From an uncultured Verrucomicrobiae bacterium (GTDB taxonomy: Bacteria; Verrucomicrobiota; Verrucomicrobiia; Palsa-1439): DNA of 64,000 nucleotides. Location of the stretch: assembly GCA_963812605.1 (NCBI GenBank), contig CAWEWF010000014.1, positions 160,001-224,000 of the forward strand, written 5' to 3'. Positions 3,206 through 58,954 of this stretch are shown piece after piece. Position 1 is the first letter of the stretch; each line of letters opens with the position of its first letter. The notes beneath the pieces were generated by a model that had not been told where the DNA came from, ran no database searches, and saw only the letters and a program-made list of their open reading frames with translations. Both the position numbers and the translations under genes were made by a program.

Positions 3206-4064
3206 TCACGCCGTCACCTGTAGTTCGCCGGCCACGATCGCTTGATCACCAATTGCAGGCGGTGTCGCGTCGCGGCCCTCCAGGAACTCCAGCACCGCGT
3301 CTTCAAATTCCGCCTTGTGCAATTCATACGCCGAATGGCCGCCGCCAGGGATTAGACCCAGGACGGCCGACGGGATGCGGCAGGCTGTCTCGCGCAGCAG
3401 GGACGGTGGGAAGAAGATGTCTTTGGTGCCACCGATGACCAGTGTCGGCGCCTGGATTTGGCCCAGGGACTCCGAACTGTCGTGCGCAAGACAAGCCTCC
3501 AGGGAAACCAGGAAATCCGCCGGATTGCAGGGCATCGTTCGCAATAGCGGAATCAGAAACCGGGTAAAAGTCTTGTGGTACTCAGCCATCGTTACCCGGT
3601 TAATATCCTGGTAAAATTCCCGCCAGCGTTCCTCGTGCGCCAACGCCAGCCAGTGTTCGGGGGCTTTCCGTCCTTCGTCACTAACGCGGTACGCCGCGCA
3701 GGCGATAATCAACCGATTCACATACTCGGGATAGTCCGCCGCAAAATGCTGGGCCACGTAGCCGCCAAGGGAAATCCCCAAAACATCCGCCGTCCCAATT
3801 TCGCATTCAAAGGCCCTCGCATAGTCGGCGGCCATGTCCCGGGTCGTGTATCCGCGGGGCATACCGCGTTTGCGACTGACGATGTAGACCGTGGACGTTC
3901 GGCAAACCGCCGGTATTGTGAAGGGAAATCCCACTTCCGGCTGGTCACATCCCATGCGGCATCGGCCAGCCGGGAAAAATCACCACGGAATGTGGTTTAT
4001 CACCCAAGCGCACATACGAAAGTCCGCCGGGTAACAACCCTTTCTCCATCGCCAACGTTTCCAT
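3206..4064 (-). CDS. Alpha/beta hydrolase (frameshifted in the N-terminal part)
   Basis: GISLGG nucleophile elbow, PTLVIGGTKD, GGGHSAY; GGAGG SD before ATG at 4064. Confidence 0.85.
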
Positions 4065-4179
4065 AAAGGCCTCCTGCCCCTTATGATACATCGAGTTGCG
4101 GTTATGGCTATTGGGCAGCCTTCCGAATTCTACCTAGGAAATGTCACCAGGGTGGTCGACGGCTTTCTCGATTGAACTG

Positions 4180-4920
4180 CTACTCTTTGGGGAGAGTTCG
4201 TTGCGTGTTGCTGTGGGCGACCTGCATGGCCACGAGAAGGGCGATGAGGATGGCCAGGTACATTTGACCGGAGATGGCTTCGAGGTTGGCGAACGCGCGC
4301 GCGGGGCCCGACCTGGGCAGAATATCGCCATACCCCAATGTCGAAAGCGTGCTCATGCTGTAATAGATCAGCGAGTTGATCATCGCAAACTGCGGAAACT
4401 CTACATGACCCGTGGCGATGGGCTGACCGGCCTCCAGTAAGGAGCCGGGATGTAGCACTTCGAGCATGCAAAAGAGAAATGCCCACATCAACCCGAGTAG
4501 CAGATAGGCGCAAATCGCCCCATAAATCGTGTCCGAGGTCACCGTCTTGCTTCTCAGGACGTTCGAGAGAATGGCAATCGCCGTCAGCAGGAGAAACAGC
4601 ACCCCGAAGCCACGGCTGATCGCGGTCGTGACGGGATTCATGTGCTGCGCGAACGCCAGCCATTGTGCGCCCAACATTCCCGCCGCCAGTACGAGGGCCA
4701 CCGCCAGGAAACGGCGGTCGTGGCTCACGGCATAAGCGCCCGCGACAAGGATCACCGCGAAAAACAAACCCACGTGCCGCGTTTCGGCCACTTCCTGGTC
4801 GATGAACGGATAGAAGGCAAACAACAACAGCAACGCGATCAACAAAGTCAGGTACCGCTGCCGCAAAAGCCGATGCCGGGTCCGTTCACTCTCATGGGGA
4901 ATCATCGGGTTCGTCGACAC
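4180..4920 (-). CDS. Potassium channel family (Ion_trans_2) membrane protein
   Basis: Multiple TM helices; selectivity filter STLSTLGYGDILP. Confidence 0.85.
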   Translation of the reverse strand: MSTNPMIPHESERTRHRLLRQRYLTLLIALLLLFAFYPFIDQEVAETRHVGLFFAVILVAGAYAVSHDRRFLAVALVLAAGMLGAQWLAFAQHMNPVTTAISRGFGVLFLLLTAIAILSNVLRSKTVTSDTIYGAICAYLLLGLMWAFLFCMLEVLHPGSLLEAGQPIATGHVEFPQFAMINSLIYYSMSTLSTLGYGDILPRSGPARAFANLEAISGQMYLAILIALLVAMQVAHSNTQRTLPKE

Positions 4921-5022: not shown

Positions 5023-5499
5023 TCATTGCCCGCCCAGCGGGTGGTAGTTCTTATGGATCTTGTCCAAGATTTGATTCGCAGAAGGTGTGACGATCGTCTT
5101 TACGAATGGAGTCCACTTTAAATCGGTGCCGCAAGCATGGATGAAAAGCTCGCGGACACCCCCTCTGGGAAAAATAGGGGTGAACCGCGCCACCGCGACT
5201 TTATCGGTTGAAGCGAATCGTCCATCCTTTGTTGTCATTGCGAAGCCCCGGCCGTTCATGATGTTGTTGGTAGAATCGATGAAGTACTCAACGGACCAGA
5301 TTTTAACAGAGGCATTAGTGGAAACAGCGCGCACGCTCACTTCTACCTGATTGTTGTTGGTGCGGATAACCGAAGCCTCGCTCAAGATGATGTCGGTGCC
5401 ACCAGTTGCAGCCCAAGGACAGGAAATCATGGCGAAGAGCAGCACTACCACGAGTCCAAGTTGCCTGGTTCCAAAGCTCAGTGTACGGACTGGATTCAC
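5023..5499 (-). CDS. Hypothetical secreted protein (Ig-like beta content)
   Basis: Hydrophobic signal-like segment. The likely GTG start (5499) overlaps the stop codon of the duplicated icd 3' end. Confidence 0.5.
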
Positions 5500-5670
5500 A
5501 TCTTGCTTATCACCGCATCGCCAAACTCGGAGCACTTCACTTTCTTCGCTCCCTCCATCTGCCTTGCGAAGTCGTAAGTGACGGTCTTGGCGTTGATGGC
5601 CCCGTCCATGCCTTGGAGAATGAGGTCGGCGGCTTCGGTCCAGCCGAAGCAGTGGAACGTCATTTCGCCG
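5496..5670 (-). repeat. Diverged second copy of the icd 3' end (icdC-like fragment); direct repeat of 6236-6409
   Basis: Translates [57 protein letters not shown], versus icd [56 protein letters not shown]. Confidence 0.95.
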
Positions 5671-5893
5671 CAGTCAGTTCGCGAGCGTGCAGGACTTCGT
5701 GACCGGAGAGCGAGCGCACCTTGTCAGCTTCTAACGACAGCACAGCGATGGTTTTGCCGTCGGATGTCATGAACTCGACCTCGTAACCTTCGCCGTTACC
5801 GTGCACCATGACGGCAGTACCAATGTCGCCGGCCACGAGGCCGTGCATTGGCAGATCAACCGTCAGGGCTACCAGATCCAACTCCTTAATCAT
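5660..5893 (-). CDS. DUF4926 domain protein (putative antitoxin/immunity protein)
   Basis: [37 protein letters not shown]...DGKTIAV matches the DUF4926 pattern. Confidence 0.85.
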
Positions 5894-5905
5894 AACGGGA
5901 ATCTA

Positions 5906-6231
5906 TCATGGTTTGGTAGGGTATGCAGTAACAAAGTGGGGCGGTGGCCGGTCGTCGCGCAAAATCCAGATTGTGGTAATGGCCAGGCTGCCGCTCCGCG
6001 ATGGGATGCTACCGCGCACAACAAACTTGCGGCCAAAGGGCGACGGCAGTTCCTGCGCGCGTCGGACTCTCGCGCGAGTTGAAGCAAAACGTCCACGAGA
6101 CGCTGTGCCGTGTACCCGGCGGTGACGAAGACGCGTTGTTTGTGCCGACCATGAGCGTGTGTGGCGCTGAGCAAGTACCGCTCAATCTTGTTTCTCTCGA
6201 CGACGGCGTGCTCCGCGTCTGGCAATTTCAT
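5906..6231 (-). CDS. DUF6883 domain protein (putative nuclease-type toxin), frameshift near 6060
   Basis: MKLPDAEHAVVERNKIERYLLSATHAHGRHKQRVF; after the shift SPFGRKFVVRG...TIWIL.....PHFVTAYPTKP*. Confidence 0.75.
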
Positions 6232-6235
6232 CGCG

Positions 6236-7525
6236 TCACATCTTCTTAATCACCGCATCGCCGAACTCGCTGCACTTGACTTCCTTCGCGCCTTCCATCT
6301 GCCGGGCGAAATCGTAGGTGACGGTCTTGGCGTGATCGCGCCGTCCAGGCCCTTGAGGATCAGATCGGCGGCTTCGGTCCAGCCCAGGTAGCGGAACATC
6401 ATTTCGCCGGAGAGGATGACGGAGCCGGGGTTGACCATGTCCTTGTTGGCGTACTTGGGCGCGGTGCCGTGGGTGGCTTCGAAGATGGCGTGGCCGGTGA
6501 TGTAGTTGATGTTGCCGCCGGGCGCGATGCCGATGCCGCCGACCTGCGCGGCCAGCGCGTCGGTGAGATAATCGCCGTTGAGGTTCAGCGTGGCGATGAC
6601 GTCGAAGTCCTCGGGCGGGTGAGCACCTGCTGCAGCGTGATGTCGGCGATGGCGTCCTTGATGACGAGGCCCGCGCCGGGTTTGCCTTCGGGAATCTTGC
6701 ACCACGGGCCGCCGTCGATCTCCGACCGCGCCGAAACGCTCCTTGGCGAGCTCGTAGCCCCAGTCGCGGAAGGCGCCCTCGGTGAACTTCATGATGTTGC
6801 CCTTGTGGACAATCGTGACGCTCTTGCGCTTGTTCGTGATGGCGTAGAGGATGCGGCGTGGATCAGGCGGTTCGTGCCGAGATAGCTGACCGGCTTGATG
6901 CCGATGCCGACATCCACGTCCGGGCGGTGCGGCGCGCCGATGGCCTCAAGCTGCTTCAGCCACTGCGCCGCCGCTTCTTTGGTTCCGAAGCGGATTTTCT
7001 TGAATTCCTTGGGAAATTCCTTCGCCAGGAAATCGAGGATCTTCTGCGCTTCGGGCGTGCCGCCCGCGTACTCGATGCCGGCGTAAATGTCCTCGGTGTT
7101 CTCGCGGAAGATGACCATGTCCACCTTCTCGGGATGCTTCACGGGCGAAGGCACGCCCTTGAACCAGTGCACCGGGCGCAGGCAGACGTAGAGATCGAGC
7201 ATCTGGCGCAGCGCGACGTTGAGCGAGCGGATGCCGCCGCCGACGGGCGTGGTGAGCGGGCCTTTGATGCCGACGAGGTAATCCTGGAACGCCTCGACCG
7301 TGTCGTCGGGCAGCCAGTTGTTGAATTTCTTGAAGGCCTTCTCGCCGGCAAAAACCTCCATCCAGGCGATCTTGCGTTTGCCGCCGTAGGCTTTCTTCAC
7401 CGCCGCGTCGAACACGCGCTCGGCGCGGCCCAGATGTCGGGGCCGGTGCCGTCGCCGCGGATGAAGGGAATGATGGGATTGTCGGGAACGTTCAGTTTGC
7501 CGTTTTGAATGGAAATCTTTGCCAT
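6236..7525 (-). CDS. icd: NADP-dependent isocitrate dehydrogenase (several single-base frameshifts)
   Basis: [65 protein letters not shown]. Confidence 0.95.
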
Positions 7526-7640: not shown

Positions 7641-8451
7641 GTGGGTTACGCGATTTTGTTTCGCCAGTTTCCCCTCGATCAACTGGATGCGCTGGCGCCG
7701 GTCGTTGCGGGGATTTACGGCATCAACGATTACGACGCGCGCACGAAGATCCGCAAAGGCTGGGGATTTCTGGAGCGGGACGCCTCGAAGGAAGACGCGC
7801 TCCGAATCGTGGAAGGCGTGGGCGATTATGCTGGCGGCGTTGTCTGCATAGACAACACCGCGCTCCGCATGCCCGGCGGGAACCGCGCGTGACCACGGGA
7901 GTCGAGTTCGCGCCCAACGGTTTCACGCTGCGCTTGCAATCGACCGAAAGATCCCACCCGTTTCCTCGAATGGGCACAGGTGGAAGTGGTGTCCGCGGGC
8001 CAGTTTTCGGAGGAGATTATCAAACGCGTATCGGGTGGCGACGAAAAGAAAATGGGGGCGATGATGCTGGGCGTCGGCGTATTTCTCGCCACCGGCATAC
8101 CGCCCGGCCTGCTGGGCGGCGGCAAGAAAAAGAAGAAGGAAGCCAAGCCCGAGAAAACCATGCGCACGATCACCTTCGGCCGGATCGTCACGATCACCGG
8201 CGAACAGTTTGCCTTCGGTCCCGAGCACTTTGATTTCTCCGGCCTGGCCGAGAAAAAGCAGTTAAACACCGGCGCCAACTTCCGCGTGCTTCTCGCGGAA
8301 TTGGCCGCTGACATCCGCCAAGGTGAACCGCGGCGCGCGCCTCCTGCTGGACAACCGCTCCCTGACCTTCGCCAACTACGCCGGCCCGCACGACTTCGAA
8401 ACCGAATTGCTTTGGCTGCTAAATGTCCCGCGTGGTGATAGCGCCGAATGA
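7641..8451 (+). CDS. Hypothetical protein (frameshifted); probable distant paralog of 19306-20064
   Basis: Pieces in ORFs 7605, 7595 and 7980 join into one reading ending [33 protein letters not shown]. Confidence 0.55.
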
Positions 8452-8474
8452 ATCGGGCAGCGTGACGTGGAATC

Positions 8475-9313
8475 TTATTTCGCGCCGGGGACATCCACGC
8501 GGGCGCGGTAGAGACCGGTGCGGGCGCAGATGTAGAGGGTTTTGCGGTCGGGGTCGCCGAAGGCGACGTTGGCGGGGCGCTCGGGCAGGGTGATTTCGCC
8601 AAGCTGCTTTCCGGTGCGGTCAAAATTTCGACCGATTTCATTGCGGAAATGTAAAGGGTGCCTTCGACGTTAACCCGGAAGCCGTCGGGGCGTTCTACTT
8701 TGCAGAAAACACGACTGTTTGTAATGCTGCCGTCAGCGTTTACATCAAAAGCGCGGAGGTGACCGAGTTCCGTGTCGGCGATGTAGAGAATTTTTTCGTC
8801 GGGCGAAAAAGCGAGGCCGTTGGGTTTGACGAAGTCCCGCGCAACCAGGGTGAGTGTCTCGCCCTTCGGCGACACGCAGAACACACCTTGGAAATCCAAT
8901 TCGCGCAGATCCGGCTTCACGCCGTAGGGCGGATCGCTGAAATACACCGAACCGTCGCTTCGACACACGATGTCATTGGGGCTGTTAAGCCGCTTGCCTT
9001 CATAGTGTGTGGCCAGCGCGTTGACCGTTCCGTCGTGCTCGGTGCGCGAGGTGCGACGGTTTTCGTGTTCGCAAGTGACGAGACGGCCCTGCGGGTCGAG
9101 CGCATTGCCATTGGCCTGACCGCTGGGTTCGCGGAAAATACTGAACGAATTGGTCGCCGGCGTGTAGCGGCGAATACAACTGGCCGGAATATCGCTGAAG
9201 AGCAGTTCGTTCCGTGCCTGTACCCACACGGGTCCTTCCAGAAATTGGAAATTTCCCGCAATTTTTTCAGCTACTGTGGCGAATGTTGATGATGTCGCCG
9301 TCTTCCACGACAT
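8475..9313 (-). CDS. SMP-30/gluconolactonase/LRE family protein (frameshift near 8620; start uncertain)
   Basis: FLEGPVW, LLFSDIP, LNSPND, YFSDPPYG, PNGLAFSPDE, PDG; C-terminus PANVAFGDPDRKTLYI. Confidence 0.9.
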
Positions 9314-10355
9314 ACTCTTTGCCTTTGACATGGAGCTTGCCAGTTTCCTTGAGCTTTACTTCCGCGGCGTGCCCGGTGTCGGCAGCCCCGATCAGGTCGC
9401 CGTATTTCATCACCTCGGCGCGGATGAAACCGCGGGCGAGGTCCGAGTGAATGGCGTGCGCTGCGTCGACGGACGTGGCGCCGTGACGAATGGTCCAGGC
9501 GCGGACTTCGTCTTCGCCGCTCGTGAAAAACGAGATGTAACCGAGCGCCTTGTAGAGAAAACGCGTGAGAATGTTAATCGCTGGTTCGGTGATGCCGAGC
9601 GCGGCCAGGAATTCGGCGCGTTCGGCGGGATTCTCGATCTGCGCGACCTCGGCCTCGGTCTTGGCGCTGAGTTCGCAGACTTCGGAACGCGGGCCGGTGA
9701 GTATCGCCTGGGCGGCTTGCACCAGCTTCGGGTTTGGGAAATTACTTTCGCCACAATTGAGGGCGGTGACGATGCCCTTGACCGTGAGAAACTGCAACGA
9801 GCGCATTCGTTTTTCTTCACCCTCATGCCAGGCATATTCGCGGAGTGATTTTCCAGCTTCCAGATGCGGCTTGAGTTTTTCCAGCAGCGCGGCTTCGTCG
9901 GCGCGTTCCTGCTCGAACTTGCGTTTCTGGTCCTGCGCGATGCGATTGAGTCGCGTCTCGATGAGACTGAGGTCGCTGATGGCGAGTTCCAGATTCATCG
10001 CCTCGATGTCCCGCAGTGGATCGACCGAGCCGTTCACGTGAAACACGGCCGGATTTTCGAAGGCCCGGACGACGTGGCAGAATGCATCCATGTCCTTCAA
10101 CTTGTTGAGCCATTGCTCGCGCGGCTTTGGCTCGTGAGGCGGGGCGGGGGCGAGCGTACACTCGATCTCGGCGTACTTCGTCTTCTTCGGATTGTACATC
10201 GCCGAAAGCCTGTCAATACGCTGGTCGGCGACCTTGACCGTACCGATGTGGTATTCGGTGGCCCGGCCAAGCAAGTGGTCAACCCCCACACCTGTAAGCA
10301 GGGAGAAGACCGTCTTTTTGCCGACTTGTGGCAGGCCAATGAGCGCGATTTTCAT
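9267..10355 (-). CDS. ychF: Ribosome-binding ATPase YchF (OBG family), somewhat divergent P-loop
   Basis: GLPQVGKKT, HVVRAF, FFTSGEDEVRAWTI, IHSDLARGFIRAEV, GKEYVVEDGDII. Confidence 0.9.
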   Translation of the reverse strand: MKIALIGLPQVGKKTVFSLLTGVGVDHLLGRATEYHIGTVKVADQRIDRLSAMYNPKKTKYAEIECTLAPAPPHEPKPREQWLNKLKDMDAFCHVVRAFENPAVFHVNGSVDPLRDIEAMNLELAISDLSLIETRLNRIAQDQKRKFEQERADEAALLEKLKPHLEAGKSLREYAWHEGEEKRMRSLQFLTVKGIVTALNCGESNFPNPKLVQAAQAILTGPRSEVCELSAKTEAEVAQIENPAERAEFLAALGITEPAINILTRFLYKALGYISFFTSGEDEVRAWTIRHGATSVDAAHAIHSDLARGFIRAEVMKYGDLIGAADTGHAAEVKLKETGKLHVKGKEYVVEDGDIINIRHSS

Positions 10356-21540: not shown

Positions 21541-22103
21541 CAGAGGCCGAAGTCCTGCGGATCTTTCGCGACACGCAGGCGTTGCTCGATGGGCATTTTG
21601 TGCTACGTTCGGGCCTGCATAGCCGCCAGTATTTCCAGTGCGCGATGGTGCTGCAGCATCCGCGCGTCGCCGAGCAGTTGTGCGGGGAGCTGGCGGTGAA
21701 GTTCAAAGACACGGGAGCACAGGTGGTGATCTCGCCGGCGCTGGGCGGGTTGTTCGTGGGTCACGAAGTTGCGCGGGCGCTTGGCATTCGCCATATTTTT
21801 GTCGAGAAGAATTCAGCGGGAAAACTGGAGTTGCGGCGCAATTTCCAGGTCGCCCGCGGTGAAAAGGTGCTGGTGGTCGAGGACGTTGTGACTCAAGGGG
21901 GCCGTGTGCGGGAGACGCTCGACATTGCGCGCGCCCTCGGCGGCGAGGTGGTCGGGGTGGGTACACTGGTGGATCGCTCGGGCGGCAAAGTAGGTTTTGG
22001 CGTACCGCTGGAAAGTCTGCTAAGATTGTCGATTGACACATTTGACCCGGCGACGTGTCCGCTCTGTCAGGCGGGCATGCCGGTGATAAAACCGGGAAGC
22101 TGA
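21537..22103 (+). CDS. pyrE: Orotate phosphoribosyltransferase
   Basis: GHFVLRSGLHS, VLVVEDVVTQGG, C-terminal CPLC...KPGS. Confidence 0.92.
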   Translation: MTEAEVLRIFRDTQALLDGHFVLRSGLHSRQYFQCAMVLQHPRVAEQLCGELAVKFKDTGAQVVISPALGGLFVGHEVARALGIRHIFVEKNSAGKLELRRNFQVARGEKVLVVEDVVTQGGRVRETLDIARALGGEVVGVGTLVDRSGGKVGFGVPLESLLRLSIDTFDPATCPLCQAGMPVIKPGS

Positions 22104-58038: not shown

Positions 58039-58727
58039 GTTCCATCCACAGCGCAAGCCGTCTTCGTGTCTGATTTAAGCAACTCGTGGCACCTTCTACA
58101 TCCCCGCCGTTTTCGCCGTCCGCCGCACCACGTCGAACGAAGAGGAATTCGGGCAGGTCTCAACATCAGACAATTGGCCCAAGAATATTTATCGTTGGTC
58201 ATTGGGGTCAACTCCGTACTCTGGACAGATTTTGGAGGCGCACCAAAAAAGTTCGCTTTTCATTGTCAGTGCCTAAGCGCTCAGCAAACGCCATCATCAC
58301 CCGGTGCCGCAGTTCCATCCACAGCGCAAGCCGTCTTCGTGTCTGATTTAAGCAATTCGTGGCAACGTCTACATCCCTGCCGTCCTGGCGGTGCGCCGTA
58401 CCACGTCGAACAGGCTGTCCTCGGCGATGACGTGGCCGGTCAGCTTCTTCTTGCTGTTGGCGATGATCTGGCGTCCGGCTGGGGATTTGTCCATGCCCAC
58501 CAACGCTCTGGACAGATTTTGGAGGCGGACCAAAAGGGTTCGCTTTTCGTCATCAGGGCTAAGCGCTCAGCAAGGGTCATCATCACGCCTACATTCCCGC
58601 CGTTTTCGCCGTCCGCCGCACCACGTCGAACAGGCTGTCTTCGGCGATCACGTGGCCGGTCAGCTTCTTCTTGCTGTTGGCGATGATCTGGCGGCCGGCT
58701 GGGGATTTGTCCATGTCCACCAATGCT
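58039..58727. repeat. Mosaic repeat array A-B-X-C-A-B-C-B (B = phnD-like 3' end)
   Basis: A at 58039-58095 and 58312-58368; B at 58096-58138, 58369-58507 and 58589-58727; C at 58219-58300 and 58506-58586. Confidence 0.9.
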
Positions 58728-58954
58728 GTCTGGATCTTGCAATCGCCGTAGTCCTTGGCGATGTAGAGCACGACCTTCTGCCCGATGGCATCAGAAAGAT
58801 AGGCCGCGAGCGGGTCGAACTCGGCCCGCATTTCCGCTTCGCCGAGGACGGGAGTGAAGCCGAATTTCAGGTCGCGCGCGGCGGCGGGGCGAACGGCGAG
58901 TCGATGATGAAAACCGTAAGGACCAACAAAGCCGTTTGACGAGGGCGTCGTCAC
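58589..58954 (-). pseudogene. Internally deleted PhnD-like phosphate/phosphonate ABC substrate-binding protein
   Basis: N-terminal LKFGFTP....MRAEFDPLAAYLSDAIG.KV.....DY is fused directly to C-terminal KIQTALVDMDK...DSLFDVVR; the central part is missing. Confidence 0.65.

Follow-up and report, generated by a model that had tools for sequence, protein, structure and literature searches.

The question raised by this locus is how a small putative toxin/immunity cassette, with no integrase gene of its own, came to lie between two copies of the 3' end of a housekeeping gene. The locus is part of the window, i.e., the whole 64,000-nt stretch analysed here (G000:C14:160001-224000), taken from contig C14 of a genome bin of an uncultured Verrucomicrobiae bacterium (G000; 4.17 Mb, 15 contigs, 89.96% complete). 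The host gene is icd, which encodes NADP-dependent isocitrate dehydrogenase, and the cassette consists of DUF6883, a putative RNase toxin gene, and DUF4926, a putative immunity gene. The reading we favour, with moderate confidence, is that a 740-bp unit (a 177-nt icd 3' end plus DUF6883 and DUF4926) entered by integrase-free homologous recombination via the icd end it carried, and was kept by the toxin/immunity pair. Insertion-duplications of this integrase-free kind recur at the ends of genes, the locus being one example. Its features are:

6236–7525, minus strand: icd, the host gene (Pfam Iso_dh on open reading frame (ORF) pieces)
6236–6412, minus strand: copy A, the icd-attached 3' end, last 57 codons plus TGA (repeat search)
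5906–6231, minus strand: DUF6883, a BECR-Tox3-type putative RNase toxin gene (PF21814)
5660–5893, minus strand: DUF4926, a putative immunity/antitoxin gene, 77 aa (PF16277, E = 3e-21, 75 bits)
5496–5673, minus strand: copy B, the displaced icd 3' end, 57 codons plus TGA, its frame still open in the window

The icd frame runs from 7525 to 6236, with ATG as its final codon and TGA at 6236–6238. Four nucleotides (CGCG) separate this stop from the DUF6883 start at 6231, and the TGA of DUF4926 (5660–5662) falls within copy B. The insert between the copies measures 562 nt (5674–6235) and holds DUF6883 and DUF4926 only. Copy B matches Pfam Iso_dh at profile positions 304–348 (E = 3.6e-6). The repeat search detected the two copies as segments of 98 nt (86% identity) and 80 nt (83%) at a spacing of 739–740 nt, and their alignment gives 83.7% identity over 178 nt with one 1-nt indel; all other repeat families in the first 12 kb of the window measure 36 nt or less. 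The G+C content of the cassette (0.57–0.59) equals the genome value. A promoter-like site was found only upstream of icd (7588–7561, minus strand), and between icd and the cassette the signal scan returned neither promoter-like nor terminator-like sites on this strand. Since the scan gave the cassette no promoter signal of its own, and since it starts 4 nt past the icd stop, it is probably read from the icd transcript. The coordinates and gene order in a first-pass annotation of this DNA proved correct to the base when all were rechecked, and its description of DUF6883 4 nt past the icd stop, followed by a DUF4926 whose own stop lies inside a second icd end, is borne out by the coordinates and by Pfam. 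Its insert size of ~570 bp is corrected to 562 nt, and its account of the locus was right in part: the recurrence of the layout across the genome and the indels in the window copy had been missed.

Contig C15 of the same bin (28.9 kb) is collinear with C14:142–169 kb at ~90% identity and represents a co-binned second strain or species. Its icd, DUF6883 and DUF4926 genes are all intact, the DUF6883 product (108 aa) giving a full-length Pfam match and the icd orthologue scoring 636 bits against TIGR00183 (NADP-IDH). Compared with 12 relatives, the window icd has four single-base deletions, one of them in copy A near 6333, and one single-base insertion. The C15 icd is free of these five indels, has an in-frame 3-nt deletion besides, and forms an intact 452-aa frame that runs through copy A, so that the gene is kept whole by the end attached to it. 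DUF6883 is split over two frames in the window and intact (108 aa) in C15 and in two relatives, G024 and G041. The window indels are probably consensus errors of the main contig, which has about one single-base indel per 300 nt in icd; a noisy long-read consensus probably lies behind them and may account for the 89.96% completeness. The hydrolase and gluconolactonase genes beside icd (3206–4091, 7826–9331) look frameshifted as well, and their C15 copies are intact.

The order icd, copy A, cassette, copy B is found again in C15, with a cassette 92% identical to that of the window and a second icd end (B') of 176 nt. It is also present in G041, an independent assembly from another genus, with a spacing of 741, a copy B of 92–104 nt and the junction GAAATGA in common. 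Among 41 genomes searched with the query, its cassette part had matches in C15 and G024 (third genus) alone, and an order-wide protein search gave DUF6883 matches at E ≤ 1e-5 in 9/47 genomes. An arrangement fixed in all relatives, which would speak against an insertion, was not seen: none of 17 same-genus genomes carries the cassette at icd, none has a close DUF6883 homologue, and the DUF6883 homologues of two (35–38% identity) are at other loci. A comparison of icd loci for empty sites and alternative cargo, as had been proposed, found both. Only a single icd 3' end is present in G009, G007, G003, G005, G013, G014 and G002, and in G013 the hydrolase gene of the window flank lies ~380 nt past icd, an empty site. 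Other DNA follows icd elsewhere. In G016 this DNA extends over 2 kb and includes genes for PadR and an IS200-like Y1 transposase; a 40-nt icd-end copy comes next and, 4 nt past that copy, an HNH homing-endonuclease gene. G006 has three ORFs without a family match and icd-end copies of 29 nt and 36–72 nt, G015 has ~100 nt followed by a 40-nt copy, and G021 has an 81-nt copy.

The same cassette family is also found behind two further hosts. The DUF6883 of G057 (61% identical) begins 2 nt past the metF stop and is followed by DUF4926; behind this cassette are two more metF ends (32 nt, 88% and 97%), with the same 40-nt CTGA-rich spacer before each. In G056, a 35%-identical pair starts 8 nt past the xseA stop, and behind it the xseA end is present a second time over ~110 nt, with a separate stop and a C-terminal tail that differs from the first. 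One family thus uses three host genes: icd, metF and xseA. The suggested survey of DUF6883–DUF4926 pairs for flanking duplications gave positive results, with a duplicated host gene end at five of the 12 loci examined (two in G000 and ten others); a search for related loci with a four-member alignment returned six, three of them already known. Spacers rich in CTGA (e.g., CTTCTGACTACTGACTCCTGTCTTCTG), with stops in several frames, stand directly before displaced gene-end copies in three genomes:

L038 (G057), 2094–2133 and 2714–2753: CTGA-rich spacers
L019 (G015), ~3590–3630: CTGA-rich spacer
L021 (G022), ~7220–7288: CTGA-rich spacer

Within G000, the layout is not confined to icd. A self-BLAST of the genome, filtered for direct repeats of 30–450 nt that are at least 75% identical, 150–6000 nt apart and present in at most four copies, left 111 pairs. 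In 28 of these, the copy nearer the gene terminates no more than 10 nt from a stop codon that closes a frame of 100 codons or longer, compared with 8.8 ± 3.0 pairs (maximum 17) in a shifted control of 118 offsets. The 28 pairs represent 26 loci, of which 17 were retained after Pfam annotation and junction inspection. All 17 show a host gene, a small cassette and a copy of the host 3' end, and all 17 hosts are different:

icd: DUF6883 + DUF4926
cytochrome-c peroxidase: DUF433 + DUF5615
ABC transporter: DUF433 + DUF5615
276-aa protein: HigB + helix-turn-helix (HTH)
HNH_5 gene: DUF4160 + DUF2442
CbiX: Phd/YefM
HhH-GPD: GIY-YIG
unnamed gene: DUF5678 + aspartyl protease
Zn-ADH: SDR + SnoaL
495-aa protein: DUF1559
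OYE, PheA, NTP-transferase, AP_endonuc_2, ComM and DEAD helicase (six hosts): ORFs without a clear family match
LpxC-FabZ: ORFs without a clear family match, a marginal TSP3_bac match only

Toxin–antitoxin-like or nuclease cargo is present at 8/17 loci, and several of the DUF pairs are toxin–antitoxin candidates. The homology between the two copies ends from −9 to +2 nt of the host stop codon at all 17 loci. The 5' edge is variable, with copy lengths of 36–233 nt and no shared junction motif. At several loci the cargo is 58–500 nt away from the host stop or on the opposite strand, and translational coupling was rejected as a sole filter for this reason. The DUF4160/DUF2442 cassette is missing beside its host gene in 17/17 same-genus genomes. 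Extra pheA ends are found behind pheA at varied distances in G002, G011, G006 and G014, with a DUF2283 gene between in G002. In G012, the host gene of the HigBA cassette abuts a conserved 86-nt element, possibly a tRNA gene, and part of that cassette is copied (89–92%) at two other loci. One gene end is present three times in a row at a DEAD-box helicase gene (L061, G000:C4:29203-30764) and at pheA (L082, G014:C62), which suggests that cassettes may stack behind one another.

Among the 26 flagged loci, FKBP tandem paralogues and TPR repeats were dropped, as were seven unclear loci (C10:187184, C10:219992, C14:218096-218734, C14:754871, C4:101757, C4:376696 and C7:69905). One of the seven lies in the window (58096–58734), where a phosphonate-binding-protein gene fragment has two or three partial direct copies at its end (98% over 43 nt, 89% over 150 nt). 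They may represent a further gene-end duplication, blurred by frameshifts. A tandem of HNH5 copies A and B without a cassette in G012 (L077, G012:C30, ~21620–21712) was rejected as an empty site because NN stands exactly at the join; most likely, this is a scaffold gap that hides an insert.

In Escherichia coli, e14 and phage 21 integrate into icd and leave the icdC pseudogene. The anatomy at the window locus is much the same, with the same host gene, a replacement 3' end of similar length (~57 codons) that differs mostly at synonymous sites, and an old end displaced downstream. The cassette could, then, be what is left of a tyrosine-integrase element of this kind, cut down to its addiction module, or a cis-mobilisable integrase-less element (CIME) mobilised in trans. 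Such an origin is unlikely. The absence of an integrase noted in the first-pass annotation stands: no integrase or phage gene was found between or beside the copies, the nearest of the 12 PF00589 matches in G000 is 81 kb from the icd locus, and tblastn with ten G000 integrases gave no match in window positions 1–30000. The same ten queries were run against 20 loci of relatives (228 kb; 19 with icd, and L021 with an icd-end copy only) and matched one, L019 of G015, where two overlapping queries hit an integrase homologue 5.4 kb downstream of icd. That gene could be cited for the prophage origin, but it is outside the A–B interval. Another point in favour is that icd-end copies in four genomes start at one position ~40 nt before the stop (TGCAGCGAGTTCGG...), like an att core:

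L017 (G016), 6743–6782: icd-end copy with the common start
L019 (G015), 3631–3670: icd-end copy with the common start
L018 (G006), 10034–10104: icd-end copy with the common start
L021 (G022:C20), 7289–7327: icd-end copy with the common start

This fixed boundary could be the true att core of a different element class. The copy in G022 is away from icd and precedes a 249-aa ORF and a BglII-type restriction-modification pair. Against a relic stands the recurrence of the layout: 17 loci with different hosts, varied repeat lengths and no common motif would need many integrases, and a single cassette family uses icd, metF and xseA. Compared with e14 and phage 21, the locus has neither integrase nor phage genes, its cargo is 562 nt only, and its layout is repeated at many other genes. 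Of the two origins offered in the first-pass annotation, the prophage relic is thus not supported and is less likely than recombination via a carried icd end.

A different possibility is that 177 nt of resident sequence were doubled at insertion, by staggered breaks or by template switching of the type seen in microhomology-mediated break-induced replication, and diverged in place afterwards. Several loci do have near-identical copies (95–97%), and a 10-nt microhomology is present where the cassette meets copy B:

5660–5669, minus strand: GGCGAAATGA, the end of DUF4926 (A-A-K-stop) and the start of copy B
6399–6408, minus strand: GGCGAAATGA, its partner inside icd, read as G-E-M

The motif has two matches in the window compared with 0.35 expected by chance, and two or more were obtained in 6/100 shuffles. 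Both copies share it, as they would an att core at their 5' edge, but the next 25 nt hold five differences, and in G024 the DUF4926 gene ends in ...GCGAAATGA, with unrelated DNA behind it and no icd copy. As the G024 gene carries it too, the 10-nt motif is native to DUF4926 and the join is a microhomology join, which would be expected for closure of a circle or for an illegitimate end join. Target duplication has also been described as a mode of insertion for restriction-modification genes, according to excerpts of PMC2853133.

The divergence of the two ends makes a duplication of resident sequence distinctly unlikely. A local duplication with a freely decaying distal copy should approach a ratio of non-synonymous to synonymous rates (dN/dS) of ~0.5. 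Across 56 codons, the icd copies have 16 synonymous and 11 non-synonymous differences, giving a dN/dS of 0.12; their differences are thus largely synonymous, as had been claimed, and the suggested test of both 3' ends points to purifying selection. The 17 loci taken together give 135 synonymous and 93 non-synonymous differences (dN/dS 0.16); the icd row of the pooled table is distorted by the window indel, and the separate icd value of 0.12 is the valid one. In-frame stops occur in two of the B copies. As these ratios are well below ~0.5, the copies behave as two alleles that were both selected through most of their divergence, and one icd end would have been imported as a working gene end. 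At 0.46, the synonymous distance separating copies A and B is larger than the 0.24–0.31 seen for species of the genus and about equal to the 0.48 seen between genera (copy A versus G024). At OYE, LpxC, metF and xseA, moreover, the A and B stops are at the same distance and the last codons are spelled differently. On this view, the homology would end at the stop because coding sequence is conserved between donor and recipient and sequence past the stop is not; matching stops with different tails appear to fit alleles better than breakpoints.

Two origins through reverse transcription were rejected. An RNA-mediated one, from mRNA cut at stops by RelE-type toxins, was considered because the homology ends at stop codons; RVT_1 has no match in G000 (89.96% complete), and an allele boundary is simpler. 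A diversity-generating retroelement fails on the same search, and the A/B differences include T/C, G/C and C/A, beyond template adenines.

It could also be argued that icd-DUF6883-DUF4926 is an old, vertically inherited operon that has been lost many times, with copy B derived from an unrelated partial duplication or an exchange of the downstream flank. G000, G024 and G041, which belong to three genera, all have the cassette at this position and share a homologous left junction, and the cassette identity of 72–74% is below that of icd, as for an old resident. Little likelihood can be given to this view, since it has to meet the absence of the cassette from all 17 same-genus genomes, and since it leaves unexplained both the recurrence of this layout at metF, xseA and 16 other loci and a reciprocal mosaic between the two strains in the bin. 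When copies A and B of C14 and C15 are compared, sites 11, 20 and 48 follow position (A with A, B with B), whereas sites 99, 105, 106, 117 and 164 are swapped, the A of one strain agreeing with the B of the other. Such a pattern would be expected if a circle with one icd end had entered the two strains at different crossovers, or if excision had been followed by re-entry.

A chimeric assembly of two strains' icd ends, the artefact that the first-pass annotation had allowed for, is very improbable indeed: the bin does contain two strains at ~90% identity, the main contig has many indels and no reads could be mapped, but the same junction is found in C15 and in the independent G041 assembly from another genus, the independent assemblies G056 and G057 share the architecture, and the 10-nt identity between cassette end and icd is too short for a false join.

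The favoured reading, entry of the 740-bp unit by recombination via a carried icd end, would proceed as follows. A small DNA would have brought the cassette and a working icd end from another lineage, and RecA-type homologous recombination with the resident icd would have joined them, either through a Campbell-type single crossover of a circle or through homology-facilitated illegitimate recombination. The outcome would be an icd made whole through copy A, with the other end displaced behind the cassette as copy B. Recombination between A and B would remove the cassette without a scar, and only cargo that punishes its loss would persist, such as a stable RNase toxin with its immunity protein, other toxin–antitoxin pairs or nucleases; selection of this kind would explain the cargo at the other loci. 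The earlier suggestion that a tiny cassette spreads through an icd 3' end which it carries is in this way supported by the empty sites, the alternative cargo, purifying selection on the ends, the mosaic, the microhomology and the lack of an integrase. More tentatively, and with rather less assurance than for the single entry at icd, Verrucomicrobiota may host a whole class of recombinase-free cassettes whose integration machinery is only the housekeeping 3' end that they carry. These would loop out between the gene-end copies, travel as small circles or fragments and re-enter the same gene elsewhere via the RecA of the host, addiction cargo surviving by blocking scarless loss; the C14/C15 mosaic would then record two separate entries.

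Several observations weigh against this reading. G024 has icd-DUF6883-DUF4926 with the same left junction and no second icd end, a layout possibly compatible with vertical descent of an old operon and many losses, and 7/12 of the DUF6883–DUF4926 loci have no flanking duplication (E ≤ 0.01, within 2.6 kb). Purifying selection is contradicted at CbiX (dN/dS 1.29) and at the DUF5678 host (0.62). The synonymous divergence between A and B could also have arisen by later allelic replacement of icd with B left frozen, and the mosaic, which consists of eight informative sites, could reflect gene conversion or mis-polishing of four similar copies. Assembly from four public read runs produced only short contigs of the conserved icd parts of relatives, which are uninformative on circles, empty sites and the indels; in one of them 26 foreign letters stand at an unclean joint (5592->6358). 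Neither a circle nor an excision product nor a read from an empty site turned up, and the share of sampled words present in a public run never rose above 0.10. The reading does not account for the placement of the first junction exactly at the stop codon.

That the cassette encodes a toxin and its immunity protein is suggested by both sequence and predicted structure. PF21814 matches, above its gathering score, the N-terminal half of DUF6883 in the window with 46.6 bits (E = 4.6e-12) and the C15 protein with 78.8 bits over profile positions 1–110; PF16277 lies directly downstream, and DUF4926 follows DUF6883 at seven of eight further loci. An AlphaFold2 model of DUF6883 built on 24 sequences (predicted local distance difference test score (pLDDT) 90.4) has three helices followed by a four-stranded sheet. 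The four best PDB matches to this model are chains of 6cp9, the Klebsiella CdiA-CT/CdiI complex (E = 5e-5 to 2e-4, template modelling (TM) score 0.63–0.65, probability 1.00), with entries of E. coli 3006 next. The CdiA-CT toxins in these entries are BECR tRNases. This confident fold match predicts a BECR-type alpha/beta fold for DUF6883. The likeness to CdiA-CT/CdiI (6cp9, 6cp8, 6vek; E = 5e-5, TM 0.65) is one of fold, as DUF6883 is a free-standing protein of 108 aa without a delivery domain and has 12–16% identity to the PDB chains. A PDB sequence search gave no match for DUF6883 at E ≤ 1 and chance-level matches only for DUF4926 (E ≥ 0.12), and neither gene has a match in PADLOC or NCBIfam. 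According to excerpts of a preprint (10.64898/2026.08.28.747851), DUF6883 is a BECR-fold RNase family, 'BECR-Tox3', and DUF4926 is its conserved downstream partner. The putative toxin–immunity label given to the pair earlier is thus backed by Pfam, by the preprint and by the predicted fold, which resembles toxin–immunity entries of contact-dependent inhibition (CDI).

The genes further downstream in the window are:

5023–5535, minus strand: ORF of 170 aa with a hydrophobic N-terminus and no family match, candidate GTG start at 5535
3206–4920, minus strand: conserved downstream flank, with an ion-channel gene (4180–4920) and an alpha/beta-hydrolase gene (3206–3955)

From its candidate GTG the 170-aa ORF overlaps the final 40 nt of copy B; it is unmatched in PADLOC and NCBIfam. 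Its slot is variable. Behind copy B, C15 instead has an HNH homing-endonuclease gene (three HNH_repeat plus HNH), 4 nt past the position of a decayed icd-copy stop, and next to it a convergent DUF4160/DUF2442 pair. The hydrolase N-terminus is separated by a frameshift in the window. A dispersed repeat of ~135 nt that resembles a miniature inverted-repeat transposable element (MITE) is found at L015 13590–13730 and at more than 20 places in G000, 85–97% identical and on at least eight contigs.

Three described systems besides e14 and phage 21 invite comparison. Insertion with long target duplication of restriction-modification genes was reportedly described by Nobusato in 2000. The window locus is alike in being a small, putatively addictive unit without mobility genes (562-nt insert), in having variable repeats above 30 bp (177–178 nt here), and in the single-copy empty sites of relatives. 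Excerpts of Furuta, Abe and Kobayashi (2010, PMC2853133) give direct repeats of >30 bp and inserts of <20 kb without mobility genes for this mode, and a selfish life cycle is proposed there for restriction-modification units. The locus differs from it in cargo, which is a putative RNase-type toxin/immunity pair (DUF6883/DUF4926, unmatched in PADLOC) rather than a DNA-cutting system, and in its repeats, which always end at the host stop and are diverged alleles (dN/dS 0.12–0.16) instead of near-identical copies. Minimal mobile elements (MMEs) of Neisseria, for which Saunders and Snyder (2002) and Snyder (2007) are cited, are likewise whole-gene cassettes swapped at a fixed site beside conserved genes by homologous recombination, with no recombinase. 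In excerpts of PMC3082526, they are defined with two conserved flanking genes. The homology here comes, in contrast, from one gene end, which is duplicated, whereas MMEs have no duplicated end. CIMEs, finally, are cis-mobilisable elements without an integrase that lie between att sites, for example at the 3' end of fda in Streptococcus. They share with the present cassettes the lack of an integrase, the use of a housekeeping-gene 3' end, direct repeats, and stacking (metF in G057, icd in G006), but their short att sites belong to a known integrase of an integrative and conjugative element, and no matching integrase or conserved core was found here. A literature search, with subscription journals outside its coverage, found no paper on toxin–antitoxin cassettes bracketed by duplicated host gene ends. 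New here are the putative toxin/immunity cargo in Verrucomicrobiota, the use of three hosts by one family, the 17 loci in one genome, and the evidence on entry from junction and mosaic.

How chromosomal toxin–antitoxin genes and other small selfish genes move without a recombinase is an old open question, and descriptions of insertion with long target duplication, which go back to 2000, come with no mechanism. The icd locus offers a compact case, with a 740-bp unit, a microhomology at the junction, two strains with reciprocal footprints, three host genes and 16 sister loci, and its layout points to gene gain without an integrase. Short duplicated gene ends behind housekeeping genes should not be called prophage-derived pseudogenes by default. 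If the favoured reading is true, conserved gene ends would be universal landing pads for the gain of genes across species, and addiction would decide which cargo is retained.

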